A DNA stretch of 62,787 bases from a virus (lineage: Duplodnaviria > Caudoviricetes). The DNA is taken from IMG/VR virus record IMGVR_UViG_3300028423_000849, positions 1 to 62,787 of that record; one strand, written 5' to 3'. The notes under the pieces are model-generated. The model was not told the DNA's origin, searched no databases, and was given only the letters and a program-made list of their open reading frames with translations. Every line of letters begins with the position of its first letter. Position 1 is the stretch's first letter. This document shows, piece by piece, positions 1,992 to 53,995 of the stretch. Made by a program: the position numbers and the translations under genes.

Positions 1992-4718
1992 ATGAGCTAT
2001 GTAGATGCATTCTACGACAAGAACAAAGACTTGGTCCGTGTGGCTGAGCGAACCTCTCAGGGCCGTATACTGGTCGATCACAAACCCGAATACTTGTTTT
2101 ATGTGGCTGATCCCAAGGGCAGCCATCGCAGCGTGCACGGCGATCCTGTGTCAGAAATACGCTGTAAGAACCTCAAGGATTTTCGCAAAAATGTAGGCAT
2201 GAATCGTCACAACAAACTTTTTGAAAGTGACGTTAAGCCCTTGAACAAAACCATTGCTAGACACTATTCTAATGCAGAGCCTCCTCAGTTGCAGACTGCA
2301 TTTTTCGATATTGAGGTGGATTTTGATCCACAGCGTGGCTATGCCAGTCCCGAAGAAGCCTTCATGCCCATCACCAGCATTGGCGTGTATCTGCAGTGGA
2401 TGGAAGCCATGGTGTGTTTGGCTGTGCCTCCCAAGACCCTCACCAAACAACAGGCACAAAACATTGCAGACAGTGTGCCAGGTGTAATACTGTTTGACAC
2501 AGAAAAAGACATGCTGGATGCTTTCTTGAATCTCATTGAAGATGCTGATGTGCTCAGTGGCTGGAACTCAGAAGGCTATGATATTCCTTACACAGTGAAC
2601 AGAATCATCAAAACCCTAGGCAAATCCGAAACGCGCAAACTGTGTCTGTGGGATCAACTGCCCAAGGAGCGCAACTATGAGGCCTTTGGTCGTGAAAATC
2701 AAACCTATGATCTCATTGGCAGAGTGCATCTAGACTACATGCAACTGTATCGCAAATACAACTATGAAGAGCGACACAGCTATCGCCTGGACTACATCGG
2801 CGAGATGGAAGTAGGAGAGAAGAAAGTTGCCTATGAAGGCAGTCTAGACAGACTCTACAATCACGACTTCCAGCGTTTTCTAGAGTACAACATTCAAGAT
2901 ACACTGTTGCTGGACAAACTGGATCGCAAACTGCAGTTCATTGATCTGGCAAACACCATTGCACATGACAACACTGTGCTGATCCCCACAACCATGGGAG
3001 CAGTGGCAACCACAGAGCAGGCCATCATCAATGAAGCACATCGCAGAGGCTTTGTGGTGCCTGATCGTGTCAGAGAGGACAAAGAGAACACACAGGCTGC
3101 GGGTGCTTATGTGGCATTTCCCAAAAAAGGCTATCACGGCTGGGTAGGCAGCATGGACATCAACAGTCTATATCCCAGTGTGTTTCGTGCACTCAATATG
3201 GCACCTGAGACCATTGTGGGTCAAGTGAGAACCAACCACACAGAGTCAGAGATATCTGCCAAGATGGCCGGAGAATGGTGTGATCCCAACACAGGCAAAA
3301 CAGCAAAAAAATCCAGCTTTGCAGATGCATGGTTGGGCAAGTTTGGCACCAATGAGTTTGAGATGGTGCGCAACAGAGACAGCAATATCACCCTGCACCT
3401 AGACATGGAAGATGGCACACAACTAGAGCTCACAGGTTCAGACATATACAACTTGGTGTTCAACAGTGACCAGCCATGGAACATCTCAGCCAATGGCACC
3501 ATATTCCGCACAGATTTTCAGGGCATTGTGCCTGGGTTGCTGGAACGCTGGTATGCAGAACGACAAGAGTTGCAGAAGAAGAAAAAGTCTGCAGACACAG
3601 ACGAACAAGGAGCATTCTGGGACAAACGGCAGTTGGTGAAGAAGATTAACCTAAACAGTTTGTATGGTGCAATCTTGAATCCAGGTTGTAGGTTCTTTGA
3701 CAAACGCATCGGACAATCAACCACACTCACTGGCAGGCGCATTACCCGACACATGGGTGCAAAGACCAATGAACTGCTTGCAGGTGAATATGATCACACT
3801 GGCAAAACCATCATATATGGAGATACAGATAGTGTGTACTTCAGTGCAGTGCCAGTGCTACCCGATGACACTGAGCTGGATCTAGAAAGTGCACTCAAAC
3901 TCTATGATCATGTGTCAGACACAGTGAGTGAGAGTTTTCCTACGTTCCTCAAAGAAGAGTTCAATGTGCCACTGAGTGCTGGTGCTGTGATGCAAGCAGG
4001 ACGTGAAGTGGTTGGCCAAGCTGGCCTGTTTATAACCAAGAAACGCTATGCCATCAAGTGTTTGGACATAGAAGGATATCAGCCCGAAGGAGGCAAGTTA
4101 AAAATCATGGGCATGGATATCAAGCGATCTGACACGCCTGAGTTTATTCAAGAGTTTCTTGAGGAAGTCCTTGACGATGCACTCAGCGGTCTCACAGAGA
4201 AACAGGTGCTTGACAAGATCAGAGACTTCAAGTTACAATTTAAGGAAATGGATCCTTGGCTCAAAGGCATGCCCAAGCGTGTGAATAATCTCACACACTA
4301 TACCAAGAAGTATCAAAAGCTCAAAGGCACTGACAAAAGCGATCCTTTTGCTAGAAATAGGCTCAGCAAGCTCAAAGAACTTGAGCCTAAAAACAACATG
4401 ATACCCGGGCATGTCACTGCCAGCATACACTGGAATTATCTGAAAAGCATGCACAACGACAACTACTCAATGAGTATCACAGACGGCATGAAAGTGATTG
4501 TGTGCCGACTCAAAAGCAATCCCATGGGCTATGGATCTGTGGCATATCCTGTGGATGAGCTACACTTGCCAGACTGGTTCAAACAGTTGTCCTTTGACTG
4601 TGAAACTATGGAACAAGCAGTTCTCGACAAAAAGATCACCAATGTGCTAGGTGCAATGAAATGGGATCTCAGTCGCATCAATGACAGTGGCGCTCTCGAC
4701 GAATTTTTTGAATTTTAA
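1992..4718 (+). CDS. family B DNA polymerase (T4 gp43-like) with 3'-5' exonuclease
   Basis: ExoI FDIEV, ExoII GWNSEGYD, ExoIII YNIQD; polymerase motifs DINSLYPS, KINLNSLYG, YGDTDS, KKRY; C-terminal LDEFFEF. Confidence 0.97.
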   Translation: MSYVDAFYDKNKDLVRVAERTSQGRILVDHKPEYLFYVADPKGSHRSVHGDPVSEIRCKNLKDFRKNVGMNRHNKLFESDVKPLNKTIARHYSNAEPPQLQTAFFDIEVDFDPQRGYASPEEAFMPITSIGVYLQWMEAMVCLAVPPKTLTKQQAQNIADSVPGVILFDTEKDMLDAFLNLIEDADVLSGWNSEGYDIPYTVNRIIKTLGKSETRKLCLWDQLPKERNYEAFGRENQTYDLIGRVHLDYMQLYRKYNYEERHSYRLDYIGEMEVGEKKVAYEGSLDRLYNHDFQRFLEYNIQDTLLLDKLDRKLQFIDLANTIAHDNTVLIPTTMGAVATTEQAIINEAHRRGFVVPDRVREDKENTQAAGAYVAFPKKGYHGWVGSMDINSLYPSVFRALNMAPETIVGQVRTNHTESEISAKMAGEWCDPNTGKTAKKSSFADAWLGKFGTNEFEMVRNRDSNITLHLDMEDGTQLELTGSDIYNLVFNSDQPWNISANGTIFRTDFQGIVPGLLERWYAERQELQKKKKSADTDEQGAFWDKRQLVKKINLNSLYGAILNPGCRFFDKRIGQSTTLTGRRITRHMGAKTNELLAGEYDHTGKTIIYGDTDSVYFSAVPVLPDDTELDLESALKLYDHVSDTVSESFPTFLKEEFNVPLSAGAVMQAGREVVGQAGLFITKKRYAIKCLDIEGYQPEGGKLKIMGMDIKRSDTPEFIQEFLEEVLDDALSGLTEKQVLDKIRDFKLQFKEMDPWLKGMPKRVNNLTHYTKKYQKLKGTDKSDPFARNRLSKLKELEPKNNMIPGHVTASIHWNYLKSMHNDNYSMSITDGMKVIVCRLKSNPMGYGSVAYPVDELHLPDWFKQLSFDCETMEQAVLDKKITNVLGAMKWDLSRINDSGALDEFFEF

Positions 4719-4993
4719 TGAAAAAGACTCTATCAACCACAGAACGCATGGCTCGCTATAGAGCATTTCGTGAAGCTGTTGCAGACACAGCAGTGGCATT
4801 TTCCATCAATGTGCCGCTGAACTTTGTGATGGTGTGGGTAGCATTTCAGCTGAAATTTTCAGCGTGGCAAACCAGTATAATGCTAACCACAGTGTTCACT
4901 GTTTTTGCAATAGTGAGAAAAACCTACATAAGATTGCATTTTCAAAAAAAATACCAGAAAACCGGCTCGTATGAGTCAAACGAACCTAAATAG
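4718..4993 (+). CDS. small two-TM membrane protein
   Basis: TAATG overlap with the polymerase stop; two hydrophobic segments. Confidence 0.6.
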   Translation: MKKTLSTTERMARYRAFREAVADTAVAFSINVPLNFVMVWVAFQLKFSAWQTSIMLTTVFTVFAIVRKTYIRLHFQKKYQKTGSYESNEPK

Positions 4994-5016
4994 AACACAC
5001 ACAGGAGAAAACACAC

Positions 5017-5772
5017 ATGGCAGACAACTATATCAAAGACACACTCAAGGATGTGCTCAAGCACACTCATAGCCTGGGCATTTTTGAGATGGTAAAAATC
5101 TCAGGCACCATGGACGAAACTGTGGTTGAAACAGTGGATGCTGAAAAAACAGTGATCTTCAAAGGCAAGATGACAAAACCAGTTCCGGACTTTGCTGACA
5201 ACACAGTGGGTCTAAGTCGCATGAGTGTGCTTGACGGTTACTTGAAATTTCCAGGATTTGATGATGATGCTGCCACTGTGCGTGTGACCACACAGGAGCG
5301 CAACGGTCAAACTGTGCCCACAGAAGTTGAATTTGTCGCAGAGGACGGCACCAATGCCAACTATAGGTTTATGCTGGCAGAAGTGATCAATCAACAGCTC
5401 AAGGAGATCAAATACAAAGGCGCAGACTTTGATGTGAACATTGTGCCCACGCAGAAAAATCTCAAGGACCTAGCATACTTCAACAGCGTGCTCGGACAGT
5501 TTGAGAGCACATTTTCACCCCGCACTGAGGATGGCAAATTGTATTTCTACATCGGCGACGGCGGCGGAGACAGAACAAAGATTCTTGTCAATGATTCTTC
5601 CGAAGGAGATATCACACATGAATTTCATTGGCCGTTGGACATTGTGCTGAAAATTCTACGTCTCAGTGAAAGCAGCAATGTGGTGATGAGTTTTAATGCC
5701 AAGGGATTGATGCAGATTGTGGTGCACAGTGGACTCAGCGAGTACACATATCTACTTCCAGCAAAAGGCTAA
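5017..5772 (+). CDS. DNA sliding clamp (gp45/PCNA-like)
   Basis: 251 aa with a two-domain alpha/beta pattern; PCNA-like C-terminal YTYLLPA; next to the polymerase; RBS AGGAG. Confidence 0.7.
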   Translation: MADNYIKDTLKDVLKHTHSLGIFEMVKISGTMDETVVETVDAEKTVIFKGKMTKPVPDFADNTVGLSRMSVLDGYLKFPGFDDDAATVRVTTQERNGQTVPTEVEFVAEDGTNANYRFMLAEVINQQLKEIKYKGADFDVNIVPTQKNLKDLAYFNSVLGQFESTFSPRTEDGKLYFYIGDGGGDRTKILVNDSSEGDITHEFHWPLDIVLKILRLSESSNVVMSFNAKGLMQIVVHSGLSEYTYLLPAKG

Positions 5773-5775
5773 AAC

Positions 5776-7335
5776 ATGGACCTAGCAAGACGCCAAAGAG
5801 ACTATGCAGTGTATCTGCCTGCTATTAGCAGTTTCTATGCCAAGCAGCTGGAAAAAATCACTGTGCGCAACCGTGAAAACAGCAGAGTGCCGGAAGGGTT
5901 TGAGCATGGCAACGAAGGACTTGATTTTCTCAAACCCAAAGACACTTACTTTCACTATCCCTATGGACTTTACAGTGCAGGGCATGCTCATCTAGACATT
6001 GACAAAAGCAACACCGATGAACCCATGATTCAAGATCGAGATAGATCAAACACAGTGATCTTGGGCGACTCGGGCGGTTTTCAGATTGCCACAGGTGTGC
6101 TCAAAATGGACTGGAGCAATGCCAAGGATCCAGAAGATCCTGCACGCATAAAAATCTGCCATGATATTCTACACTGGCTGGAACACACAGCAGACTGGAG
6201 CATGACCTTGGATATTCCTGCGTTTGCTGCAGTTGAACCCTTGAGCACAAAGACAGGCCTCACAGAGTTTGATGACACACTGGATATCAGCCTGTTGAAT
6301 TTGGATTACTTTGTAAAAAATCGCACACCAGGCAAAACCAAGTTTCTCAATGTGCTCAGTGGCACAGACGAGAGCACCAGCAAGCGTTGGTACGACAGTG
6401 TTAAGCATTTCAGCGATCCTGGCTTTGTGGAATCCAACTATGGCGACAAGGAGCGTGTGCTAGAAGGTTATGCGTTTGCTGGCATCAACATGAAGGATAT
6501 GAGCTGTGTGCTAAATCGCATACTTGACCTCAGAGCAGATGGATTGCTGGCAGGCAAGGACTGGATTCATTTCCTGGGCACAGGCAAACTGCAGTGGGCA
6601 TGCTATTTGACAGCAATTCAGAGACAGTTGCGCAAGCACGACAACCCCAATATCACACTGAGCTTTGATGCTGCATCACCGTTTGTGAACACTGCATATG
6701 GCCAAACCTATGCGCACAACTTTTTTGAGCCAGGCAAGTTTGGTTACTTCATGGACAGAGCTTTTGATTCACAGGAACTGAAGAACAGTGATTTACCTGT
6801 GCCATTTGCTCACTCGCCAATCATGAGTCGACTCACCATGGGCGATATCTGTGCTATGGCTGAAGGTGACAAGGACAAGAATGGCAAAATCAAGCGCACA
6901 CAAGGCCAGGTGCTCCTTGACAAAGAAGGCAAGCCCAAGTTGGATGCTGACGGCAATGAAACGTATGCAGAAAAAGACTGCACCAGCTGGGATACACAGA
7001 GCTATCTCTACTATATGGCACACAGCGTGTTCAATCACATCGATGCTGTGCAAGAAGCAAATCGTCTTGCAGATGTGGAATCATACAGAGAACATGTGGA
7101 CTACAGATACTGGAAAAAACCACAGAAAAGAAACAGCAAAGCAGGCGAAGTGTCTCCATATGTGCCTGTGAATATACTGCTGTTTAAGAACTTTGTAGAG
7201 GACCTGCTTGATCCACAGTGCAAAGACCCCAAAGGCATGGTGCAGGCATATTCTGAATTTCTGCAATACATTAGTTTTGGCAGTGACGACAACGACCGCA
7301 AAGAGGAAGTGTTAGATGAATTTTTTGAGTTTTGA
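5776..7335 (+). CDS. dpdA: DNA 7-deazaguanine transglycosylase (TGT superfamily, DpdA-like)
   Basis: TGT motifs GDSGGFQ, MTLD, HFLG and SFDAAS; clustered with folE, queE and a queD-like gene; C-terminal LDEFFEF. Confidence 0.85.
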   Translation: MDLARRQRDYAVYLPAISSFYAKQLEKITVRNRENSRVPEGFEHGNEGLDFLKPKDTYFHYPYGLYSAGHAHLDIDKSNTDEPMIQDRDRSNTVILGDSGGFQIATGVLKMDWSNAKDPEDPARIKICHDILHWLEHTADWSMTLDIPAFAAVEPLSTKTGLTEFDDTLDISLLNLDYFVKNRTPGKTKFLNVLSGTDESTSKRWYDSVKHFSDPGFVESNYGDKERVLEGYAFAGINMKDMSCVLNRILDLRADGLLAGKDWIHFLGTGKLQWACYLTAIQRQLRKHDNPNITLSFDAASPFVNTAYGQTYAHNFFEPGKFGYFMDRAFDSQELKNSDLPVPFAHSPIMSRLTMGDICAMAEGDKDKNGKIKRTQGQVLLDKEGKPKLDADGNETYAEKDCTSWDTQSYLYYMAHSVFNHIDAVQEANRLADVESYREHVDYRYWKKPQKRNSKAGEVSPYVPVNILLFKNFVEDLLDPQCKDPKGMVQAYSEFLQYISFGSDDNDRKEEVLDEFFEF

Positions 7336-7853
7336 TCATGGATAGACCAGAACACAACAATGCAGATTTTTTTGTTGGCGTGGAAGTTGAGCGTACTCCT
7401 GCATATGGTCAGCGCACACTGTTTGTGGTTGGCCCTCAGGATCAACAGGAAATTCTATCACAGGCATTGAACAACGGTTGTGCACACATCTATCTAGGTG
7501 CCAACCACAGTTTTGCACCCAAAGATGAGCAACAGTGGCAACAGTGGCATAAGCTGATCAACGGTTTGCTGACGGATGGTATTTGGGTCACTCTAGACTA
7601 TGATGTATCTCTGAACAGTCGTGTCCTGGAGCGTGGATATCAACATTTTGATAATTTTATTGCCATGATCTCTGTGAAGCTGGCTCATATACGCGAGCAC
7701 AACTACAACGCCTCTGTGAAATTGGATGACAGTGATTTCAAACATTCAAACCCAGGTGTGTGGGTCCATTCACTGCACGAACTGCAAACTCGGAACACAT
7801 TCACAGACTGGAGTCGCTACGACAGTGACACAGTGATTGACAAAATCACATAA
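7332..7853 (+). CDS. hypothetical protein coupled to dpdA
   Basis: Overlaps the dpdA stop (TTG at 7332, or ATG at 7338); globular composition. Confidence 0.7.
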   Translation: MIMDRPEHNNADFFVGVEVERTPAYGQRTLFVVGPQDQQEILSQALNNGCAHIYLGANHSFAPKDEQQWQQWHKLINGLLTDGIWVTLDYDVSLNSRVLERGYQHFDNFIAMISVKLAHIREHNYNASVKLDDSDFKHSNPGVWVHSLHELQTRNTFTDWSRYDSDTVIDKIT

Positions 7854-7865
7854 GGGTTTTATACT
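7837..7865 (+). promoter_or_regulatory. sigma70-type promoter
   Basis: TTGACA-17nt-TATACT. Confidence 0.7.
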
Positions 7866-7874
7866 GGTAACACT

Positions 7875-7997
7875 ATGAAAATGAATCTCAACATAGAAAT
7901 AGACACCGACAACATCAGTGACCGAGAACTCATTGAAGAGCTTGTTGATTCTCTAAAACAACTTGGTATCAAACACTCAGAAGAGGACACTGAATGA
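7875..7997 (+). CDS. 40-aa acidic peptide (not in ORF track)
   Basis: MKMNLNIEIDTD...EEDTE, just downstream of a promoter; ATGA overlap with the next gene. Confidence 0.55.
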   Translation: MKMNLNIEIDTDNISDRELIEELVDSLKQLGIKHSEEDTE

Positions 7998-8377
7998 GAA
8001 CCATATGGATCACATTTCAACAGGAAGGTGTTCACAAGTACCCAGCTGCACTTGACGATGAGCGTCTAGCAACAGGCAACTGGGATGATGTCAGCTTCTT
8101 GGGCTATCCCCACAGGCACATGTTTCACTTTAAAGTATGGATTGAGGTGTTCCATGATGACCGAGACATTGAATTCATACAGTTCAAACGCTGGTTACAG
8201 AGATTGTACACTGTGGACGGTGTGCTAGATTTAGACTACAAGAGCTGTGAAATGATCGCTGACGACCTTGCAGAAAAGATTCAAGAAAAATATCCAGGTC
8301 GGTGGCTGAAGATTTCAGTTGCTGAGGATGATGAAAATGGGTGCGAGATTGACTATCCTGCACACGGCAAACTCTAG
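7994..8377 (+). CDS. QueD-like T-fold protein (6-pyruvoyl-tetrahydropterin synthase family; possibly DpdL-type)
   Basis: N-terminal EGVH, LGYPHRHMF metal motif, SCEMIA and C-terminal EDDENG; lies in the deazaguanine cluster. Confidence 0.75.
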   Translation: MRTIWITFQQEGVHKYPAALDDERLATGNWDDVSFLGYPHRHMFHFKVWIEVFHDDRDIEFIQFKRWLQRLYTVDGVLDLDYKSCEMIADDLAEKIQEKYPGRWLKISVAEDDENGCEIDYPAHGKL

Positions 8378-8808: not shown

Positions 8809-10005
8809 ATGAGAAAACTCTACTACATGGGCTTAGAAAGCTATGAAGCACGCTACACACTGCAGTTACAGGACTGGAATGAGCAGGTGTTTCAGCTCAA
8901 CGGCATTGACTACGAAGTGATCACAGGTGAGGAACTAGACAATTCCAAGGCCATTGTCACTGGCTCAGTGTTGGATGCCCATGGGCGTAGCTACTATAGT
9001 CTCAGTCAGACCATGAACCTCATCCAGAAGATGAAAAACGGCGAAATCACCAAAGACGATGTGATCTTCTATGAAGATATGTTCACACCCGGACTTGAGT
9101 GTTTGCCATACATCATGGATCAATCACCCCCAGAGTATCGTCCTCAGGTGTATGTGCGTTTTCTTGCACAAACTGTTGATCCAGATGATTTTCTTGTCCG
9201 CGAAGGCATGTTCAAGTGGATGCGAAGATATGAACAGATGGTGGATGAGTTTGTAACTGGAATCTGTGTGGCCAGCGAAGAGTTTGTGGCACACCTGCGA
9301 ATCGCTGGCATACAGACTCCTATCTATGTCACAGGCTTGCCTTTTGGTAAATCTGAAGTAGAAAGCAGAGTCCCTGACCGCAAATCCTTGGATCAACGCT
9401 GTCAGCGTGTGGTATTCGCTGCTCGCTGGGATGACGAAAAGCAGCCTGACTTTTACATGGATCTTGCTGAACACTACTACAGCATTGATCCCAGTGTGGA
9501 GTTTGCTGTGTTGTGCGGTCATCCCGAGCTCAAAAGCAACAATCTCAGCTATGTGGAGCGCGCAAAGCAGTTAGAACAGGGCAGCACAGCAAACTTCCGT
9601 GTGTACACAGGACTCAAGAAAAATGACTACTACAGCCTGCTTGCAGACAGTCAGGTGTTGTTCAACTGTGCACTGCAGGACTGGGTTAGCAACACCGTGA
9701 GCGAAGCAGACACCATGGGCACGCTCACACTGTATCCTGCATATAGAAGTTTTCCTGAGGTGTTTGCCAACAACAACAGGCATCTCTATGTGCCCTGGAG
9801 CATCCAAGATGCTCAGCAAAAACTCACTGACATGTTTGATTCCATCAAAGACAACAATCTCAGCGAATACTCGCTGGGCAAAATCAGCGACTATCAAGAC
9901 GGAACAATTCAGAGAACCATTGATGTACTACAAGGCAAAGGAGCACAGTGGCAGAGAAACGATTGGAGTTTCAGACGCCACGTAGCTGAGGCAAAATATG
10001 AGTGA
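8809..10005 (+). CDS. GT-B fold glycosyltransferase (GT4-like)
   Basis: FAARWDDEKQP, then QDWVSNTVSEA...GTLTLYP resembling the GT4 nucleotide-binding region; coupled to galE. Confidence 0.8.
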   Translation: MRKLYYMGLESYEARYTLQLQDWNEQVFQLNGIDYEVITGEELDNSKAIVTGSVLDAHGRSYYSLSQTMNLIQKMKNGEITKDDVIFYEDMFTPGLECLPYIMDQSPPEYRPQVYVRFLAQTVDPDDFLVREGMFKWMRRYEQMVDEFVTGICVASEEFVAHLRIAGIQTPIYVTGLPFGKSEVESRVPDRKSLDQRCQRVVFAARWDDEKQPDFYMDLAEHYYSIDPSVEFAVLCGHPELKSNNLSYVERAKQLEQGSTANFRVYTGLKKNDYYSLLADSQVLFNCALQDWVSNTVSEADTMGTLTLYPAYRSFPEVFANNNRHLYVPWSIQDAQQKLTDMFDSIKDNNLSEYSLGKISDYQDGTIQRTIDVLQGKGAQWQRNDWSFRRHVAEAKYE

Positions 10006-10975
10006 TCAAAAAACAGTATTAGTTACAGGCGGCAGTGGTTTCATTGGCACAATGGTGTGCCTGCAGTTGGTTGAAGCAGGCTACAATGTGATCAACATTG
10101 ACCGAGACAAGAAGAAAAAAGAGTTGCCAGGAACCACACTGTATCCGTTTGATATCAGCAATCACCAGGTGGATGGCATTATTCAACTCACCAAGCCCGA
10201 CACCATCATACATCTTGCTGCAGATCACGAAGTGGGTCGTAGTGTCCAAGAGCCCCATGTGTTCTATCAAAACAATGTGGCAAACACCATTGGCCTACTA
10301 AACAGTGCACTTGAAGCAGGAGTAAAAAACTTTGTGTTTTCCAGCACCAGCAGCGTTTACGGCGACACACACAGTTTTCCCACAGCAGAGACAGAACCTA
10401 TGCTGCCAGTTAGCCCCTACGGACGCAGCAAAGCATTTGTGGAAGATCTCCTGTGGGATTACACACACGCTCACAGTATGCGCTTTGTCAGCCTGCGCTA
10501 CTTTAACGCTGCTGGTGCTGACCCTGACATGAGGCACGGCTACACACAAGACCCTGCCAGCCACCTTGTGCCCATTGTGTGCAGAGGTGCGCTCAGTGGC
10601 GACACTCTCAGTGTGTATGGCAATGACTATGACACCACAGATGGCACCTGTGAACGTGACTACACGCATGTGTGGGATATTGCATCAGCACATCTCAGTG
10701 CCATGGAGTATCTAGACAACGGTGGCAACAGTGATGTGTTCAACATTGGTGCAGGCAACAGCACCAGTGTGCTGGGTATTGTAGATGCACTCGCAGAAAC
10801 CACAGGAGCCACAGTCAACTATGAGTTTGTTGATAGAAGACCAGGTGATCCTCCAAAGACCTACTCTAATATCTCAAAAGCACAAAAAGTGCTTGGTTGG
10901 TCACCCAAATACAATATCAACGACATTGTCCAACATGCTTATCAATGGGAACAAAACAAGAGGAAAAAACGCTGA
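9998..10975 (+). CDS. galE: UDP-glucose 4-epimerase
   Basis: TGGSGFIG, HLAA, FSS, YGRSK, LRYFNAAGA, DGTCERDY, RRPGD. Confidence 0.92.
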   Translation: MSDQKTVLVTGGSGFIGTMVCLQLVEAGYNVINIDRDKKKKELPGTTLYPFDISNHQVDGIIQLTKPDTIIHLAADHEVGRSVQEPHVFYQNNVANTIGLLNSALEAGVKNFVFSSTSSVYGDTHSFPTAETEPMLPVSPYGRSKAFVEDLLWDYTHAHSMRFVSLRYFNAAGADPDMRHGYTQDPASHLVPIVCRGALSGDTLSVYGNDYDTTDGTCERDYTHVWDIASAHLSAMEYLDNGGNSDVFNIGAGNSTSVLGIVDALAETTGATVNYEFVDRRPGDPPKTYSNISKAQKVLGWSPKYNINDIVQHAYQWEQNKRKKR

Positions 10976-11451
10976 TGTCGACCACCAAAGAATATATCAG
11001 CAGTGCACAGATGAATGGTTATTATCTAGATGTTATACAGGCCATGAGCAGTGCACAGTATCAACCAGATCAGATTGTGGCAGTGAGTCGAGGAGGTTTG
11101 GATTTCGGCGTCAAGCTCAGTCACTGGGTCGATGATGCAGACTTTGTGCCGCTCACATGGCAAACACGCGACGGGGCAGACAAGGATATTGAGCTGCTGA
11201 ATCGTGTGTTATCTAAATACTCAGGCTGCAACATACTGTTTGTGGATGACATCTGTGACAGTGGAAAGACATTGGGCGAAATTGAACAATATATCAACAG
11301 TGTAGACACAGATGTATACATAGATTACGCAGTGGCTATCCACAATCAGGATGCAGACTTTGCACCCACATGGTGTGGGAGAACCATCTACCGTAACATG
11401 GACACACAGTGGTTTGTGTTTCCTTGGGAAGAATGGTGGAGTACCAACTAG
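10975..11451 (+). CDS. purine phosphoribosyltransferase (Gpt-like type I PRTase)
   Basis: VSRGGL, PRPP loop LFVDDICDSGKT, C-terminal WFVFPWE; TGATG overlap with galE. Confidence 0.88.
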   Translation: MSTTKEYISSAQMNGYYLDVIQAMSSAQYQPDQIVAVSRGGLDFGVKLSHWVDDADFVPLTWQTRDGADKDIELLNRVLSKYSGCNILFVDDICDSGKTLGEIEQYINSVDTDVYIDYAVAIHNQDADFAPTWCGRTIYRNMDTQWFVFPWEEWWSTN

Positions 11452-11696: not shown

Positions 11697-12395
11697 ATGA
11701 AAAATCACAAATACAAATACCAAGAAATTGCAGATCGTATCCGAGATGCTGACGCCCCATACTGGGCCAAAGACAATATCAGCCGATTCATCCTTGAAGG
11801 CGAACAAGAAACGCTCATCGACGAGCTCACAGAAAAGTTTGAAGGTGTGTTGGATGCACTGATCATTGATCGTGACAATGATCCCAACAGTCACGGCACT
11901 GCTCAAAGATTGGCTAAAATGTATTTCAATGAGCTCATGCAGGGAAGATACTGTAATAAGCCTGCTGTGACCGCCTTTCCCAATGACGGCGATGATCCCT
12001 ACACAGGCATGTTGGTTGCGCGTGCGGAAATAAAAAGCATGTGCAGTCACCACCATCAGCCTGTGACAGGCGTGGCCTATATTGGCATTATTCCCAACGG
12101 GCAAGTCATCGGCCTCAGCAAGTACGTTCGACTGGCACAGTGGTGTGCTCGACGTGGCACATTGCAAGAAGAGTTGGCCAACGACATTGCCAGAGAAATC
12201 GTCTCAGAAACAGGCAGCAAAAATGTGGGTGTGTACGTACAGGCCACACATGGTTGCTGTGAGAATCGTGGCATTGGCGCACACAGCAGTCTCACACAGA
12301 CCACTGTGCTCAAAGGATCGTTTCTCAACGACGCAGGCACCAAGAAGGAGTTTTTTGACAACATCAATCTGCAACAACAGTTTTCTCCTAGGTGA
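11697..12395 (+). CDS. folE: GTP cyclohydrolase I
   Basis: SMCSHHH, GLSKY.R, LQEEL, HGCCENRG. Confidence 0.95.
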   Translation: MKNHKYKYQEIADRIRDADAPYWAKDNISRFILEGEQETLIDELTEKFEGVLDALIIDRDNDPNSHGTAQRLAKMYFNELMQGRYCNKPAVTAFPNDGDDPYTGMLVARAEIKSMCSHHHQPVTGVAYIGIIPNGQVIGLSKYVRLAQWCARRGTLQEELANDIAREIVSETGSKNVGVYVQATHGCCENRGIGAHSSLTQTTVLKGSFLNDAGTKKEFFDNINLQQQFSPR

Positions 12396-12499: not shown

Positions 12500-13033
12500 A
12501 TGATCTCACTGAGAGGACCAAACAATGTAATGGTGGTAGATCGCACTGCTGTTCCGGTTGAACAGGTCTGCGAACAGGTTCTCAGCACACAGTTCGCTGA
12601 TCAAGTGCTAGAACAGTTTCCCATAACCACCGAAGAACTGTTTGCTTGTCTAGAGGTGTTCAGCGACACACAAGGACCCATAAACAATGACTTTGTTAGT
12701 ATTTCGTGTGTGAAAACAGATGACGGTGATGTTGAACTGGAGACCACGGCAGTCAGCGATTGGGTATACATTACCGCTGTATATCTAGGAGAGCAAGTCA
12801 CACAAAACGAAGAACGATTTGACACCTTGTATGCCTATGGCATGGAGAGTGTGATGTATGACTGCTTGCTGGATATGCAGAACGGCAGATCCAGTTTCAA
12901 TCACAGTGACATACACAGAATAGTGTTTGACGCATTTGTGGAAGCCTACGGCGATCTCACAGACGATGATGTGGTCAAACTCATAGAAAGTCTCAAAGAG
13001 GAAGGATTCCCCTATGACGACACTGAAGTATAG
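12500..13033 (+). CDS. hypothetical protein with N-terminal DUF433-like HTH region
   Basis: RTAVPVEQV...QVLEQFPITTEELFACL resembles DUF433; RBS GAGGAG before ATG 12500. Confidence 0.55.
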   Translation: MISLRGPNNVMVVDRTAVPVEQVCEQVLSTQFADQVLEQFPITTEELFACLEVFSDTQGPINNDFVSISCVKTDDGDVELETTAVSDWVYITAVYLGEQVTQNEERFDTLYAYGMESVMYDCLLDMQNGRSSFNHSDIHRIVFDAFVEAYGDLTDDDVVKLIESLKEEGFPYDDTEV

Positions 13034-13937
13034 CGAAACATTTTATAGCTCACAGGGCGAAGGCCATTACATGGGCATACCCAGCCTATGGATGAGATTT
13101 TTCCTGTGTAATCTACAGTGCAACGGTTTTGGACAAGATGACCCCACTGATCCCGATAGCTGGGAGTTGCCCTATGAAAACATTGACATCTCAGATGTCA
13201 CAGATGTCACTGAGTTGCCTGTGTTCAGCAAAGGCTGTGACAGCTCATACACATGGGCCAAACGTTACAAGCATTTGATCACAGATCGCAGTGTGCCTGA
13301 TGCTGTTGATGAACTCACTGCACTGCTGCCAGGAGGCAAGTTTCAGCATCCTGCTACCCAACAGTGGGTTCACATGGTGTTCACAGGCGGCGAGCCCATG
13401 CTGAAAAACACACAGCCGGGCATGAGTGCTGTGCTTGAAGAATTTGCACAGCGTGATAATCCATGCCGCTTTGTGACCATTGAGACCAATGGCACCAAAC
13501 CTATTACCACAGAGCTTGCAGACTGGATTCAGCAGAGATTTCTAGGAAGCAGTGAATATGATGGCACAGTGCCAGACCACTTAGGTGAGCCGGAGTGGTT
13601 TTGGAGTGTGAGTCCCAAACTGTGGAGCACTGCGGGTGAGAAAACAGCCAAAGCCATACAACCCGAGGTTGTAGGTGAATATGCCAAAGCAAGCAATCGA
13701 GGTCAGCTGAAATATGTGGTCAATGGCAGCAAAGAAAGTTGGCGAGAAGTTGAGGAATACACACAGTGGTTCCGCGAAGCAGGAGTGGATTGGCCTGTGT
13801 GGATCATGGGCGTGGGTGGCACAGTGGAAGGACTCAAGCTCACAGAAGCAGACATTGCTGATGAAACCATACAGCGTGGATACAACTATACCACTCGTGC
13901 GCATGCACACATCTATGGCAACGCCATTGGCAAATAA
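13014..13937 (+). CDS. queE: 7-carboxy-7-deazaguanine synthase (radical SAM)
   Basis: ETFYSSQGEG, RFFLCNLQC...GCDS, FTGGEP, IETNGT, SVSPK. Confidence 0.92.
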   Translation: MTTLKYSETFYSSQGEGHYMGIPSLWMRFFLCNLQCNGFGQDDPTDPDSWELPYENIDISDVTDVTELPVFSKGCDSSYTWAKRYKHLITDRSVPDAVDELTALLPGGKFQHPATQQWVHMVFTGGEPMLKNTQPGMSAVLEEFAQRDNPCRFVTIETNGTKPITTELADWIQQRFLGSSEYDGTVPDHLGEPEWFWSVSPKLWSTAGEKTAKAIQPEVVGEYAKASNRGQLKYVVNGSKESWREVEEYTQWFREAGVDWPVWIMGVGGTVEGLKLTEADIADETIQRGYNYTTRAHAHIYGNAIGK

Positions 13938-21313: not shown

Positions 21314-22435
21314 ATGCTGGAGCGAATCTATCAAACCTGGAACATAGAGCCTGCACACATCACAGGCGATGAGTTCACAGGCTACGAGCATCTGTACCCC
21401 AAGTTTGATCAGTTCACCAAAGAAGTCTATGATGCAGATCCTGAGGGCACCATTGAAGCAGTGTTTGATCTATATCGCAGCGTGAACCTGGTGCCCATGG
21501 ACTATTACACAGAAGCAGGCTTGATCAAAGCAATCCGTGACTTCCGTGACGCCAGCTACAAGAATGTCAGGGACCATCGCATAGGATTAGGCAACAACCG
21601 TGGTCAGAAGATCAGCAGGTTCCTGTTTCCCAACATGATGACTGCTGAGCCCAAAGGCCGTGGCAGCAACAGTCTCAGAGATCGCTTCCTAGACGATGCC
21701 AAACTGCGCAGAGCCATACGCATCTGTTTTGAATTTCGTGAAGGCAATGCATTGGTTTATCCCACAGCCATGCGCCGTTCTTTGGAGTTGGTCACTGGCG
21801 AAAATGTGCAGAACTTCAAGCCTCAGCATGCGCGTGCCATTGTGGAGTATCTGTGTCCTACATTGTGGGGTCGTGTGTACGACTACAGTTGTGGTTATGG
21901 AGGCAGGTTGTTGGGCATTACCAGCAGCAATCTCAGGTATGAGTATGTGGGCATAGATCCCAACACAGAAACCACAGAAAACTTGCAGCTACTAAATCAA
22001 TTCATTGAGCTGGCAGGTGGCACACCAGGTGAGATACATCAGAGTGTAAGCGAACAGTTTGTGCCTGAGCGCATAGACTGTGCATTTAGCTCACCGCCCT
22101 ACTTCAACTTGGAAAAGTATTCCGATGAACCCACACAGTGCATGAATCAGTTTCACACACTGGATGAGTGGTTTGAGGGCTATGTGGTTCCCACCATGAA
22201 GAACATACGCACAGGTCTCAACTCTGATGGTGTATTTGCTACCAACATTGCAGACTACAAGGTCCCAGGAGCAGAATTCCAAGTGGTTGATCGTTGGATT
22301 CACACAGCAGAACAACTTGGCTTTCGGCACACAGAAACCATCCGTATGATGCTGAATACCCGCCCCGGAGTGGGCAATGGCAAGCAGGATGGGGTAGAGA
22401 AATTCGAGGGAATTTATGTGTTTTCCAGAGGTTGA
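21314..22435 (+). CDS. DNA amino-methyltransferase (N4-C or N6-A)
   Basis: SAM motif DYSCGYGGR, GIDPN, catalytic SPPY. Confidence 0.85.
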   Translation: MLERIYQTWNIEPAHITGDEFTGYEHLYPKFDQFTKEVYDADPEGTIEAVFDLYRSVNLVPMDYYTEAGLIKAIRDFRDASYKNVRDHRIGLGNNRGQKISRFLFPNMMTAEPKGRGSNSLRDRFLDDAKLRRAIRICFEFREGNALVYPTAMRRSLELVTGENVQNFKPQHARAIVEYLCPTLWGRVYDYSCGYGGRLLGITSSNLRYEYVGIDPNTETTENLQLLNQFIELAGGTPGEIHQSVSEQFVPERIDCAFSSPPYFNLEKYSDEPTQCMNQFHTLDEWFEGYVVPTMKNIRTGLNSDGVFATNIADYKVPGAEFQVVDRWIHTAEQLGFRHTETIRMMLNTRPGVGNGKQDGVEKFEGIYVFSRG

Positions 22436-22495: not shown

Positions 22496-23596
22496 ATGGA
22501 TACACTAACAGTAAAACCCACACAAGTCGCCAGCATTGTAGGTCGCGCGGCACAGGTACAACGCCCCATCTTTATTTGGGGTCCTCCAGGCATTGGCAAA
22601 AGTGAGCTAGTGCAGAACATCACAGATGGGTTGGGCAACAGCACGCTGATTGATCTCAGATTGGCTCTGATGGAGCCTACAGATCTACGAGGCTTCCCTT
22701 TCCGTAATCCAGAAACCAATACCATGGAATGGGCACCGCCAGCGGACTTGCCCGGCCAGGAGTTTGCTGATCAATATGATCATGTGGTGCTGTTCCTGGA
22801 CGAGCTCAACAGTGCTCCGCCCAGTGTGCAGAGTGCTGCCTATCAGTTGATCCTGAACCGCAGAATCGGTCAGTACCAGTTACCGAAGAATGTGATCATG
22901 ATTGCCGCAGGCAACCGTGAAACAGACCGTGGTGTAACATATCGCATGCCAGCACCACTGGCAAACCGTTTCCGTCATGTGAACATGGCTGTGGACTTTG
23001 GCGACTGGCAACAGTGGGCCATCAACAATGATGTGCACCCTGATGTGTTAGGCTATCTCAGCTATGCCAAGCAGGATCTCTTTGACTTTGATCCCAAGAC
23101 CAGTTCACAGGCATTTGCCACACCGCGCAGTTGGACGTTTGTCAGTGAGATGCTCACAGACACTGAGTTTGACAGTGCTGACATCTCAGAGCAGAAAGCA
23201 GAGATTGCAGGTGCAGTTGGTGAGGGCATGGCAGGCAAGTTCATTGAACACAGACGCATTGCCAGCAAACTGCCTAACCCAGAAAACATCTTGGATGGCA
23301 CAGTGACCAAGTTGGACGACAAGCTGAGTACAGAACTCAGCGCCAAGTACAGTCTCGTGGTTGGCCTAACCTATGAGATCAATCAACTCTACAAAGAGCA
23401 AGGTCTCAAAGCAGACTTCAAGAAAAAATTCAACACTGCTGTGAGATTTGCATATGACAACTTTGAGCCTGAGATGGTGGTGCTACTGTTCAAGACCATC
23501 ATGTCGGACTACAAGATCAAGTTCAATATTCGCACCGATTTGGACAAAGATGTCTACAAGGTGTTCTCAGAGCGTTACACCAGATACATCGTGTAA
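22496..23596 (+). CDS. MoxR-like AAA+ ATPase
   Basis: Walker A GPPGIGKS, Walker B LFLDE, AAGN, PLANRF, TPRSW. Confidence 0.92.
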   Translation: MDTLTVKPTQVASIVGRAAQVQRPIFIWGPPGIGKSELVQNITDGLGNSTLIDLRLALMEPTDLRGFPFRNPETNTMEWAPPADLPGQEFADQYDHVVLFLDELNSAPPSVQSAAYQLILNRRIGQYQLPKNVIMIAAGNRETDRGVTYRMPAPLANRFRHVNMAVDFGDWQQWAINNDVHPDVLGYLSYAKQDLFDFDPKTSSQAFATPRSWTFVSEMLTDTEFDSADISEQKAEIAGAVGEGMAGKFIEHRRIASKLPNPENILDGTVTKLDDKLSTELSAKYSLVVGLTYEINQLYKEQGLKADFKKKFNTAVRFAYDNFEPEMVVLLFKTIMSDYKIKFNIRTDLDKDVYKVFSERYTRYIV

Positions 23597-23605
23597 CACA
23601 GTCAA

Positions 23606-23655
23606 TGGTGCTGGGTCCTACTACTCCTACTCCTCCGACCTACAACCCAGCACCA
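23606..23655 (+). ncRNA. candidate structured RNA: hairpin with anti-Shine-Dalgarno loop
   Basis: Perfect 11-bp stem TGGTGCTGGGT/ACCCAGCACCA; 28-nt loop CCTACTACTCCTACTCCTCCGACCTACA. Confidence 0.45.
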
Positions 23656-23660
23656 GTGTC

Positions 23661-23684
23661 GCCCCCCGCATAAGGGGGGCTTTT
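23661..23684 (+). terminator. intrinsic terminator
   Basis: GCCCCCC-GCATAA-GGGGGGC-TTTT. Confidence 0.8.
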
Positions 23685-23699
23685 AATAACAAATGTAGG

Positions 23700-23748
23700 T
23701 TGACACAGCAGACAATTCTGCTACAATAGTAGTGTAGGTAACAAGGAG
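23700..23748 (+). promoter_or_regulatory. promoter-leader cassette, copy 3
   Basis: TTGACA-16-TACAAT-AGTA-GTGTAGGTAAC-AAGGAG. Confidence 0.75.
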
Positions 23749-23754
23749 TAAACA

Positions 23755-25041
23755 ATGAGCACAGACATTAGCAAATCAGCAAGCCAGGTAGCAACGCCAG
23801 ATATTCCTGAGACTGCTAAAACATCAGCACAAGTTGAAGACATGCTGATCAAAGCTCGGGTAAAAATGCTGCTGAGTGCGCCTTTCTTCGGCAACTTGGC
23901 AACTCGCTTGCACTTCATTGATGCCACAGAGTGGTGTCCCACTGCTGCCACAGACGGCAAAAACTTCTACTACAATCGCAACTTTGTGGATGCACTAACT
24001 GAAAGTGAGCTGATCTTTTTGATGGGTCATGAGGTTCTGCACTGTGTGTATGATCACGTGAATCCAGACCATGTGAACAACCGAGATCGTCGTTTGCTGA
24101 ATGTTGCACAGGACTATGTGATCAATCATGACCTAGTTGAGGCACGCATCGGCGACATGATCCGCTTGGTAGATATCTGCTACAATCCTGCATACCAGAG
24201 CTACACTGCAGATGAAATCTATGATATCTTGTTCAAGCAAGCAGAGGAAGAAGGTCGTGTGGTTGAAATGCCCACATTGGACATGCACTTGGACAGCGAA
24301 GGTGAAGGTGACAGCGACAGTGAAGGCGGCGAAGGCAACCAAGATGGTGCCAAAGGCCCAATACAATACAGCAAGGAAGAGCTAGAGCAAATTCGCAACG
24401 AGATGCAGAGCGCTGTGATGCAGAGCGCAAAAGTCAGCGGCGCAGGCAATATGCCAGGCGGCGTGCGTAGGCTTTTGGACAAACTGTTGAACCCACAACT
24501 GGACTGGCGTGAGCTGCTGGCAATGCAGATTCAAAGTGTGGTCAAGTCCGACTACACCTGGATGCGTCCCAGCCGCAAAGCACAGAGCGCAGACATGTAC
24601 ATGCCAGGCATGGACAATGAGAACACTGTGGACCTTGCTGTGGCCATTGACACATCGGGTTCCATTTCAGAAGACATGCTGCGTGACTTCCTCAGCGAAA
24701 TTCACAGCATCATGAGCCAGTACAATGACTTTACACTCCGTCTGTGGTGCTTTGATACTGCAGTACACAATCCACAAAAGTTCACAGCAGACATCAGTGC
24801 AGACCTCCTAGAGTATGACATCCAAGGCGGAGGCGGCACTGACTTTGATTGTAACTGGGCATACATGAAGGACGAAGGCATTGCGCCAAAGAAGTTTGTG
24901 ATGTTCACAGACGGATACCCTTGGAACAGCTGGGGCGACGAAAGCTACTGTGACACACTGTTTATTGTGCACGGCGGGCATGGCGGTGAAACACCCACAG
25001 CACCGTTTGGCATTACTGTGCCCTACACCAGAGAGCAATAA
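23755..25041 (+). CDS. DUF2201-type metallopeptidase-VWA protein (MoxR partner)
   Basis: TAATDG, HEVLH zincin motif, MIDAS DTSGS, GGGGTDF, FTDG. Confidence 0.9.
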   Translation: MSTDISKSASQVATPDIPETAKTSAQVEDMLIKARVKMLLSAPFFGNLATRLHFIDATEWCPTAATDGKNFYYNRNFVDALTESELIFLMGHEVLHCVYDHVNPDHVNNRDRRLLNVAQDYVINHDLVEARIGDMIRLVDICYNPAYQSYTADEIYDILFKQAEEEGRVVEMPTLDMHLDSEGEGDSDSEGGEGNQDGAKGPIQYSKEELEQIRNEMQSAVMQSAKVSGAGNMPGGVRRLLDKLLNPQLDWRELLAMQIQSVVKSDYTWMRPSRKAQSADMYMPGMDNENTVDLAVAIDTSGSISEDMLRDFLSEIHSIMSQYNDFTLRLWCFDTAVHNPQKFTADISADLLEYDIQGGGGTDFDCNWAYMKDEGIAPKKFVMFTDGYPWNSWGDESYCDTLFIVHGGHGGETPTAPFGITVPYTREQ

Positions 25042-31200: not shown

Positions 31201-31218
31201 ATCAAACAATGTGTTCAC
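28177..31218 (-). CDS. 1013-aa protein of nine tandem GT-A-like modules
   Basis: Repeated W-x-V-D...Y/W-x-P...H-x-W/F...GG-x-x-L-x-P units; the last has VDAD and AFRECVKL. Confidence 0.8.
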   Translation of the reverse strand: MNTLFDVYYIGENSSLCEHIPFAQRIDSEREVEANTKMFWLIEPNVELLNYDVLEYRPPDHDQVYTHIWKWDNNNYGGIKLMPRSESQGIKEVNRIVCRKRFDIVNTKTPGKYFDRNPYATHVWCVDPEYKLNDHIDWAPDNFEPKYIHSFHLRNQLEHKYPELEGGIKLYPREWQDANIKYHGFLDAGVEYPVIWCEDVDDYTQRDVYSEEYVWIVDREYQLQSNTLDWVPNPFEDQMIHSFRMPNQLTEKYPKAMGGIRLVPKKWKNADLKVHQDCPIEDINYDVFYIDSDEFTADTYTEYAQRSRTEWFWMVDRNFRFNGKLLYVPAKHEQEYIHVFKLPGHLDFRYPENITEPYDSRCGGIRLVHRDFDITKQKYHAGVTPLKYDVFRTNNVTQFETYAKKSRTKMFWMVDSGYRIDQLDYVPDFDEQTNIINFKLSGQLTEKYPDKEGGIYLVPRSNPKEAPVVHRGELRNSRVEYEVFHSQEEGREKTSQAWFWVVDPNVDVMDDFSFNYVPEVWDEGKTHVWQKLNPKTQRQYDYGGVMLCPREPKTKGRPKYIREPASVHKTYPTYYLDNREDIVAQLEKFEASTDVDMYWVVDPFVKLDEDFDFDYYPTQWDANNVHVFSTSADVYTGVRLYPKGTYAQGHEYTTKEINNNSFPNLKLINTVASTTQEWPIYHITEFKRDEFLEKIQEYKQQGYDYMWTVDPDVEEQKQVVKSGFVPEITNINKIHVWQKINPTTEKVHGYGGLRLWPTHRDYSETTSDDLRLNRFKQLQYMQTPGCTYKSYEIVFISYHEPGAETAYKRLTQRFDTHWIKDVEGIFEAHKQAAMQVQSTMFWVVDADAEVSEDFDFSYIPDVYDQEVTHVWNARNPLTGHEYGYGGIKLFNTEQVRDATSWGLDFTTGLSSRFKAMPEISCTTKFNTDGFSTWRSAFRECVKLSMKDDEDSRVRLQSWLFPIPGVDYREEAKAGAQAGIDYAEANANKPMRLAKINDYEWLKEQYDEYQHNIK

Positions 31219-33976: not shown

Positions 33977-34092
33977 AATGCTCTATTTATCTGCTGTTTT
34001 TACTACAGCACAGTGTTTGTGATTTTTTCATGTTGTTCTAGTGTCTGATGTGCAGACGCATAAATATATGTTTATTACCAATATTCACGTCT

Positions 34093-34689
34093 ATGAGCTT
34101 TTCTACTGTGTCACAATTTGAAACTGTGGTTGCTGATTTCTTTGGTGCGCCATATGCTGTGGCTGTTGACTGTTGCACTCACGGAATTGAATTGTGCTTG
34201 AGATTACAACAATCAGACAATGTGAGCTGCCCCAAACACACATATCCCAGTGTGCCATTTGTGTTTGAAAAATTAAACCTGCAGTGGCATTTCCGTGATC
34301 TCAAGTGGCAGGACTATTATCGCATAGGCAACACAAATATTTTTGATGCGGCAGTTCTCTGGAGAGAACACAGTTACATGCCCGGCACACAGATGTGTTT
34401 GAGTTTTCAATTCAAAAAACATCTCAGTCTTGGCAGAGGCGGCATGATTTTACTGGATGACCAGCAGTCATGCAGACAATTAAAAAAGATGCGCTATGAC
34501 GGCAGAGACGATGACCTGCCATGGGTACAACAAAACATTGACACAGTGGGGTATCACTATTACATGACCCCGGAAACTGCTCAGCGTGGTCTAGATCTTT
34601 TTGCCAATGCATGTGCCACAGAGCCTCCTAGATGGGACGACAGCTGCTACCCCGATCTCAGCACAATGAAAGTGTTCAATGATGTCTAA
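34093..34689 (+). CDS. short DegT/DnrJ/StrS-family PLP aminotransferase
   Basis: AVAVDCCTHGI, FDAA, LSFQFKKHLSLGRGG (PLP lysine), GYHYYM. Confidence 0.85.
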   Translation: MSFSTVSQFETVVADFFGAPYAVAVDCCTHGIELCLRLQQSDNVSCPKHTYPSVPFVFEKLNLQWHFRDLKWQDYYRIGNTNIFDAAVLWREHSYMPGTQMCLSFQFKKHLSLGRGGMILLDDQQSCRQLKKMRYDGRDDDLPWVQQNIDTVGYHYYMTPETAQRGLDLFANACATEPPRWDDSCYPDLSTMKVFNDV

Positions 34690-53949: not shown

Positions 53950-53995
53950 TTTTTTCTCCTTTTGTTGTTTTTTGTGCACTAAGCACAGTGTGTAT

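Follow-up and report, generated by a model that had tools for sequence, protein, structure and literature searches.

In a 62,787-nucleotide (nt) stretch of phage DNA (IMG/VR record IMGVR_UViG_3300028423_000849, hereafter the window), a DNA polymerase and a DNA guanine transglycosylase of the DpdA3 type were found to end in the same seven residues, LDEFFEF, with the gene of a predicted sliding clamp lying between the two. The window covers only part of the genome of its phage, which is large, marine and uncultured and has Pseudomonas phage PA5oct and Vibrio phage 2.275.O among its relatives. By analogy with phages T4 and RB69, the shared peptide is probably the clamp ligand of this phage group, through which DpdA3 would dock on the phage clamp and exchange guanine behind the polymerase; DNA modification would then probably be physically hooked to replication.

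The polymerase open reading frame (ORF; 1992-4718, plus strand, 908 amino acids, aa) terminates in ...INDSGALDEFFEF, with GALDEFFEF as its last residues, and the 519-aa ORF of DpdA3 (5776-7335, plus strand) terminates in ...SFGSDDNDRKEEVLDEFFEF, with EEVLDEFFEF at its end. The putative clamp-binding tail of the polymerase, ALDEFFEF, is encoded at 4692-4715 (plus strand) and followed by the stop codon at 4716-4718, and its copy in DpdA3, VLDEFFEF, is encoded at 7309-7332 (plus strand), with the stop at 7333-7335. LDEFFEF and stop codon together occupy 4695-4718 in the polymerase gene and 7312-7335 in that of DpdA3, and the translations bear out a first-pass annotation of this DNA, in which the common end had been noticed at these same positions. 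The DpdA3 copy stands behind an acidic, polar linker (residues 500-512, SFGSDDNDRKEEV; 7273-7311, plus strand). This linker was variable in 40 close relatives of DpdA3, in which residues L496, G503, F516 and F517 were at least 90% conserved.

When the six-frame stop-to-stop frames of the window (at least 30 aa) were searched with a loose version of the tail pattern, 9 of the 1114 frames carried it, and the two of these that correspond to real genes were the polymerase and DpdA3; the other seven were frames of 32-63 aa with unrelated tails. The tail was absent from a glycosyltransferase-like protein (8809-10005) and a methyltransferase-like protein (21314-22435) of the window. That two out of about 83 genes share their last 7 residues is not due to chance, for which our own estimate is about 1e-5 or less.

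The identity of both tails could also be functionless, as a leftover of gene conversion or duplication between neighbours or as a coincidence. Both genes are indeed about 1 kb apart on the same strand, and phenylalanine has only two codons, so that part of the identity at the DNA level is forced. Nevertheless, such an origin is considered extremely improbable. The seven codons are CTC GAC GAA TTT TTT GAA TTT in the polymerase and TTA GAT GAA TTT TTT GAG TTT in DpdA3, which differ in 4/21 nt, all of them synonymous and affecting 3/7 codons (CTC/TTA, GAC/GAT and GAA/GAG), and the sequences that flank the two copies are unrelated. In 13 distinct loci of the clade to which the window belongs, the phenylalanines at positions -4 and -3 were kept in 13/13 cases in both proteins and were encoded by TTT as well as by TTC. 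This points to selection at the protein level, as the first-pass annotation had argued from the differing synonymous codons. The motif is also kept in both proteins down to 29-45% identity, shifting together by lineage.

The polymerase was identified as a family B enzyme of the T4/RB69 gp43 type from its matches to Pfam DNA_pol_B (4.9e-35), DNA_pol_B_exo1 (4e-19) and phrog_262 (7.5e-199). Its closest solved relative was RB69 gp43 (1clq, E 8e-57), with a length of 903 aa compared to 908 aa for the window protein, and PDB chains of 898 aa, which we take to be T4 gp43, were matched with an E of 6e-51. In PA5oct, the annotation splits the polymerase (locus L001, 1-4831) in two, with the gene of a Hef-like homing endonuclease in between, whereas the polymerase gene of the window is uninterrupted.

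The 251-aa product of the gene at 5017-5772 (plus strand) is predicted to be a sliding clamp subunit with a two-domain fold of the PCNA/gp45 type, being a clamp by its modelled fold and an orphan by sequence. A model built with AlphaFold2 from a 64-sequence alignment reached a predicted local distance difference test score (pLDDT) of 92.7 and a predicted template modelling score (pTM) of 0.90, compared to an unusable model with a pLDDT of 36.6 from the single sequence. The comparison of the former model to PDB with Foldseek gave at least 500 matches at E ≤ 0.001; the matches listed were all PCNA or sliding clamps, the best with an E of 2.3e-11, and their template modelling (TM) scores were 0.62-0.72. 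In BFVD, the model matched giant-virus PCNAs and 'sliding clamp' proteins of T4-like phages. The clamp fold on which the first-pass annotation had staked its proposal was thus recovered. At the sequence level, the protein belongs to no Pfam family and only to an unnamed PHROG; a profile of its 64 relatives detected nothing relevant among PDB sequences, and a Pfam search of the same relatives returned PCNA_N in only 1/64, with an E of 0.15. From the size of the two-domain subunit, the clamp ring would be a trimer.

A T4 gp44-like clamp-loader subunit was detected in PA5oct (E 7e-23) and in 2.275.O (E 5e-24), and no gp45-like sequence was found in either phage by tblastn. Therefore, the family of the 5017-5772 protein is the only clamp candidate. 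Two of its homologues carry other names, 'structural protein (ESI-MS/MS)' in PA5oct (gp314; L001, 4912-5658) and 'virion structural protein' in phage Phosso (L002, 5205-5927); either the annotation is misleading or the clamp is carried in particles. Within the window, an AAA protein (22496-23596) was ruled out as clamp loader, as it is MoxR-like and paired with a DUF2201/VWA protein. This MoxR-like AAA ATPase (AAA_5 4.7e-07) and the DUF2201 metallopeptidase/VWA protein (1.1e-37) occupy positions 22496-25041.

The clamp stop codon TAA (5770-5772) is followed by 3 nt (AAC) and then by the ATG of the DpdA3 gene at 5776, a spacing that had been correctly noted in the first-pass annotation. The 519-aa product was 49.9% identical to protein QCG76197.1 of PA5oct over 99% of its length (E 3e-156). 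Supplementary data set DS1 of Cui et al. 2023 (PMC10516641) gives QCG76197.1 as DpdA3 and QCG76199.1 as DpdL. Given this clear homology to a published DpdA3, the window protein was placed in the DpdA3 subfamily of the tRNA-guanine transglycosylase (TGT) superfamily, of which it is a predicted member, and its earlier identification as a DpdA is upheld.

In 75 diverse relatives, the motif GDSGGFQ (D98, S99, G101 and Q103), H265, G268 and D298 were invariant; the putative catalytic Asp residues were assigned by the numbering of the Z. mobilis TGT. Searched alone, the 519-aa protein had no match in Pfam, PHROG, NCBIfam, PADLOC or PDB sequences. With the family profile, 37 PDB matches were obtained at E ≤ 1, of which 36 were bacterial TGTs aligned on DSGGFQ with marginal E values of 0.28-0.71. 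NCBIfam models matched some of the 75 members, namely TgtA in 8/75 (best 4.3e-07), tgt_general in 6/75, Q_tRNA_tgt in 3/75 and DpdA in 2/75, and DpdA of PADLOC and TGT of Pfam matched 1/75 each. In the Atlas, the only lead was a TGT-like cluster at 0.93, 17% of whose members carry PF01702. The family is large: when 8000 candidates were scored, 4325 proteins matched at E ≤ 0.001, and 787 cluster representatives were obtained. In addition, a Pfam search of 12 unusually long members revealed no fusion to clamp or polymerase.

Related loci (n = 132) were collected from 3 annotated phages, from a single-protein scan of IMG/VR (49 loci) and from an alignment scan (80 loci), for which a 16-sequence alignment was used; some contigs were present in both scans. 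The three genes, with complete C-termini, were present in 115/132 loci, and in 115/115 of these the order was polymerase, clamp and DpdA3 on one strand, the DpdA3 frame following the stop codon of the clamp gene at a median distance of 3 nt. The clamp and DpdA3 are gp314 and gp316 in PA5oct, and NVP2275O_465 and NVP2275O_468 in 2.275.O. The remaining 17 loci were cut by contig ends, except that of Phosso, in which the polymerase is encoded elsewhere in the genome. A blastn search of positions 4000-8000 of the window against phages gave no match.

In the window clade, with about 75% identity, the polymerase and DpdA3 share the terminal pattern x-[LMI]-x-x-F-F-[ED]-[FML], as in xLQxFFEF for the polymerase and VLDxFFEF for DpdA3. 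In other clades, DpdA3 carries its copy of the motif internally, 25-45 residues before the C-terminus, with an acidic extension behind it. The strictly terminal position of the DpdA tail, as described in the first-pass annotation, is therefore true of the window clade and fails in most related clades, where the internal arrangement had been overlooked. When the polymerase end and the C-terminal region of DpdA3 were set side by side, the pairs were NTFGSLFSFD and NTFGSLFSFEE in locus L072, NTFNKLFDFE and NEFNKLFDFDD in L067, TFHSLFEFDD and TFGALFETDE in L024, DTLFG and SSLFGD in L058, and FDSLFGW and FNSLFDV in PA5oct. The DpdA3 motif is terminal in 2.275.O (NNTDLFDW in the polymerase, NNNDLFGW in DpdA3) and in Phosso (TFNDLFTF in the polymerase, ...IVEGLF in DpdA3). 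A clade with 62% identity was taken up as a counter-example, as its DpdA3 ends in DIMRADFDGE and its polymerase in FHSLFDFDD, and was rejected as such because TFGALFETDE is present internally, about 33 residues from the DpdA3 end.

Outside the window clade, a second conserved element was seen at the very end of DpdA3, after the motif (e.g. in L068, L073, L024 and PA5oct, L001 5995-7617). It reads (D/E)DDxLRxLEE in the PA5oct-like clade and DMQEDIMRAD[FY]DGE in the 62%-identity clade, and the window clade has neither. This element may be a second docking site.

The likeness of the tails was expressed as the BLOSUM62 score of the best ungapped 8-mer match when the final 12 aa of the polymerase were compared with the final 70 aa of DpdA3, in 91 distinct pairs out of the 115 loci; L057, whose polymerase match lacks a credible C-terminus, was excluded from the pair statistics. 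The mean score of the 91 pairs was 24.0, compared to 13.2 (standard deviation 3.6) for shuffled DpdA3 regions, and 61/91 pairs were above the 95th percentile of the shuffles. A set of 610 other ORFs of at least 150 aa from the same loci scored 11.7 ± 3.7 (99th percentile 21, maximum 31), and 55/91 pairs were above the 99th percentile of this control. The pattern hydrophobic-x-x-hydrophobic-F was present in the last 12 aa of 80/81 distinct polymerase tails from the related loci and in the last 45 aa of 76/97 distinct DpdA3s, compared to 50/705 other ORFs and to 11/957 internal windows of the same DpdA3s. In the whole record of 2.275.O (494 greedy ORFs), DpdA3 was the best non-self match to the polymerase tail, with a score of 32 vs 24 for the next.

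Co-variation was tested on 7 clades, defined by single linkage at 70% and each entered with one representative. The mean was 24.6 for matched and 16.5 for mismatched pairs, and 62/10,000 re-pairings reached the observed mean. The C-terminal region of DpdA3 repeats the local polymerase tail, lineage by lineage, far above controls, and the co-variation of both tails that the first-pass annotation had expected in homologues is found both in the tail pairs of the relatives and in the match scores.

T4 gp43 ends in ASLDFLFG and T4 gp55 in SLDFLYEAND, so the clamp-peptide motif that the first-pass annotation had given for T4 was right; RB69 gp43 ends in KKASLFDMFDF and RB69 gp55 in SLDFLYEDDN. Both ALDEFFEF and VLDEFFEF align with SLFDMFDF of RB69, sharing L(-7), a hydrophobic residue (-4), F(-3), an acidic residue (-2) and F(-1). 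In co-crystals, the last 11 residues of the RB69 polymerase lie on a hydrophobic patch of the RB69 clamp, the gp43, gp55 and gp33 tails can replace one another, and the gp55 motif is reported to be functional even when made internal (PMC2988020). By analogy, (A/V)LDEFFEF would be the counterpart of the hydrophobic acidic tails by which gp43, gp55 and gp33 of T4/RB69 bind gp45. As in these proteins, a short hydrophobic acidic end of a T4-type family B polymerase is reused on other phage proteins behind a variable linker, and the acidic extension behind the gp55 motif of T4 (SLDFLYEAND) resembles that of DpdA3 in other clades. In contrast to T4/RB69, the second tail bearer is here a DNA base-exchange enzyme instead of a transcription factor, the 251-aa clamp shows no similarity in sequence to the 228-aa gp45, and the role of clamp ligand is predicted from sequence. 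From the whole, we infer that the peptide would bind the clamp, that the polymerase and DpdA3 would share it and that the tether would raise the density of the modification.

Several observations weigh against clamp docking. Alignment of the clamp to T4 gp45 with hhalign gave a probability of 0.4%, i.e. no kinship in sequence, and therefore the binding mode of T4/RB69 is transferred by analogy, both of the fold and of the polymerases, and not by homology of the clamps. No clamp loader was found within the 62.8-kb window, which is a contig covering part of the genome. The strict motif was missed by 21/97 distinct DpdA3 C-terminal regions, most of which retain only x-L-F, and in the wider family it was present in the last 45 aa of only 55/118 full-length representatives, compared to 46/1040 internal windows. 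The co-variation rests on 7 clades, and for 5/7 representatives the DpdA3 of another clade outscores the matched one. In PA5oct, when the 428 ORFs were ranked by the simple score, the DpdA3 motif FNSLFDV came no higher than about 8th. The DpdA3-family profile detected nothing at E ≤ 1 in Campylobacter phage CP220 or in Cellulophaga phage phi19:2, which is of the same species as phiST, and thus the family of the window enzyme is a deep, separate branch. Lastly, acidic tails with an aromatic end also serve other replisome hubs, as in E. coli SSB and in T7 gp2.5 and gp4.

Given its acidic and aromatic extreme C-terminus, which resembles those of E. coli SSB and of T7 gp2.5 and gp4, the peptide might dock on such a hub (SSB, helicase/primase or the clamp loader), in which case DpdA3 would still be coupled to replication. 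The second conserved C-terminal element in most clades likewise hints at more than one partner. However, the clamp gene was located between both tail-bearing genes in 115/115 complete loci, and the homologous polymerases of RB69 and T4 use the same terminal position and residue pattern as a clamp ligand (PMC2988020), so that docking on another hub is regarded as unlikely.

A role outside the replisome was also considered, in which the tail, shared by both proteins by coincidence, would be a tag for degradation or stability or would direct localisation or packaging into the virion. Proteolysis and export are known to make use of C-terminal tags of similar size, and the annotation of the PA5oct and Phosso clamp homologues as structural suggests that some replication proteins may enter particles. 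Nonetheless, the bearers found were DNA-directed proteins, the motif matches a solved clamp ligand, and in most clades it is internal, with 25-35 residues behind it, which a strict C-terminal tag would not tolerate, whereas T4 clamp motifs work internally (PMC2988020). Such a role is accordingly held to be quite improbable, less so only than a functionless identity.

The T4/RB69-type family B polymerase, the orphan PCNA-fold clamp and DpdA3 constitute a replication-modification block. The peptide, carried on a flexible acidic linker, would dock DpdA3 on a hydrophobic patch of the clamp subunit. As a trimer would offer three docking sites, DpdA3 could travel with the polymerase or use the clamps left on new DNA, and guanines would be exchanged for 7-deazaguanine right behind the fork. 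We propose that such a tether would explain the near-complete replacement produced by enzymes of the DpdA3 type. Complete replacement of guanine is reported for DpdA3, compared to 0.1-30% for other DpdA subfamilies (PMC10516641), and PA5oct DNA is reported to resist several restriction enzymes with guanine in their sites (PMC12191111); clamp docking fits both reports. In its fullest form, the proposal would make DpdA3 a true client of the replisome that shares the trimeric clamp with the polymerase in the manner of a tool-belt, with an exchange that is co-replicative and processive and that underlies complete replacement, and with a peptide that is portable across the whole group. This extended version is put forward tentatively, with the balance slightly against it.

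The neighbourhood of DpdA3 encodes enzymes of 7-deazaguanine metabolism. A 127-aa DpdL homologue, a predicted 7-carboxy-7-deazaguanine (CDG) decarboxylase, is encoded at 7994-8377 (plus strand; phrog_17812 8.2e-32) and shares 54% identity (E 9e-43) with the PA5oct frame containing QCG76199.1. FolE (GTP cyclohydrolase I, the first step of 7-deazaguanine synthesis) is encoded at 11697-12395 (plus strand; PF01227 3.6e-38; phrog_2197), and a QueE-like radical SAM enzyme (CDG synthase) at 13014-13937 (plus strand; phrog_2076 'QueE-like' 9.3e-50), with 31% identity (E 3e-44) to the PA5oct QueE frame. The three genes lie within 8 kb, and QueD was not identified within the window. From the presence of FolE, the QueE-like enzyme and DpdL near DpdA3, guanine in the DNA is therefore predicted to be replaced by a 7-deazaguanine. 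The set formed by DpdA3, DpdL, FolE and the QueE-like enzyme is that published for 2'-deoxy-7-deazaguanosine, in the DpdA3/DpdL system of Cellulophaga phage phiST and of PA5oct (PMC10516641). In contrast to our proposal, Cui et al. 2023 treat the insertion as post-replicative, and the word 'clamp' occurs 0 times in their main text (PMC10516641). Among the rows listed in their data set DS13, the psiBLAST alignments to the phiST enzyme cover only about 260 residues (PMC10516641), and on this basis the 519-aa protein of the window has a much longer C-terminal region.

Three genes lie at 8809-11451, between those of DpdL and FolE. They encode a weakly matching GT1-like protein (398 aa, 8809-10005; Pfam E 0.023; 22% identity to the product of the PA5oct gene right after that of DpdA3), a nucleotide-sugar epimerase (phrog_540 3e-77) and a phosphoribosyltransferase (Pfam 1.2e-07); the final base may go beyond an unmodified 7-deazaguanine. 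A 91-aa ORF (4718-4993, plus strand; DUF7220, PF23858 4.3e-07; phrog_4276 1.3e-08) separates the polymerase from the clamp gene. Further away, a large block of sugar and radical-SAM genes was found on the minus strand (31215-54075), with a Nol-like carbamoyltransferase (31215-32732, minus strand), five radical-SAM-like genes in a row (45662-51825, minus strand) and a UDP-glucose dehydrogenase (52642-54075, minus strand); a DegT-type aminotransferase is encoded at 34048-34689 (plus strand). Two tRNA genes, Lys(TTT) and Arg(TCT), are present at the start of the contig (54-128 and 227-303).

Tails of the same type were seen on other proteins of these phages. NVP2275O_204 of 2.275.O (L140, 4714-4938), a 74-aa Cys-rich protein whose gene follows those of a ribonucleotide reductase and a glutaredoxin, ends in QLMLSSLFEW, the same type of tail as in the polymerase and DpdA3, and is a candidate small clamp client, as gp33 is in T4. 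Downstream of DpdA3, an ORF family of about 190 aa ends in LF motifs (L099, 11557-12141; L131, 10402-10959; L094, 8751-9357), and in L088 an ORF likewise downstream of DpdA3 (10263-10811) carries NEFNSLF, the very 7-mer that forms the motif in the DpdA3 of L088. Neither this family nor the L088 ORF was assigned to a confident family, T5orf172 being matched at an E of 0.037 only. On these sequence grounds, the polymerase-type motif appears to be portable among phage proteins. A small acidic protein of 107 aa (1197-1520), whose gene in the window immediately precedes those of a DsbA-like regulator and the polymerase, ends in ...YLEEEFDFDFEFETSLEISQ, and its homologue in L010 had a score of 23 against the polymerase tail. 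The alternating run of phenylalanine and acidic residues in the 107-aa protein is a different motif that might be another docking element.

In bacteria, the motif that binds the beta clamp is QL[SD]LF, which is resembled by ...IVEGLF of Phosso DpdA3 and by QLMLSSLFEW of the small 2.275.O protein. A PCNA-fold clamp and a gp44-like loader are, however, encoded by these phages themselves, and the host beta clamp would not be needed. In eukaryotes, the modifying or repair enzymes DNMT1 and UNG2 are tethered to PCNA through a PCNA-interacting protein (PIP) box, Qxx[LIM]xx[FY][FY]. The proposed role of DpdA3 is alike in that an enzyme acting on bases of duplex DNA would be kept at the fork through a short peptide that binds the clamp, and new DNA would be processed at once. 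It differs in the class of motif, in the chemistry (methylation or excision vs base exchange) and in the cellular setting, and there is no homology between the systems.

No paper linking a DpdA-type enzyme to a sliding clamp was found in a literature search that left subscription papers and bioRxiv supplements out of its scope. The components (DpdA3, clamp-binding tails and clamp-tethered modification enzymes of eukaryotes) are known, and their combination is new. If true, this would be the first case found in which a sliding clamp tethers an enzyme of DNA base exchange, with the PCNA-bound DNMT1 and UNG2 as its parallels outside phages. A widespread orphan protein, labelled as structural in two phage records, would be named as the clamp, and the idea can be tested in the cultured phages PA5oct and 2.275.O. 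DpdA is thought to act after replication, and a clamp tether would give a concrete answer to why DpdA3 alone replaces all guanines (PMC10516641). Aquatic and jumbo phages, among them PA5oct, 2.275.O, Phosso and hundreds of uncultured relatives, would then plug DNA-modifying or DNA-cutting enzymes into an orphan clamp by means of a single peptide.

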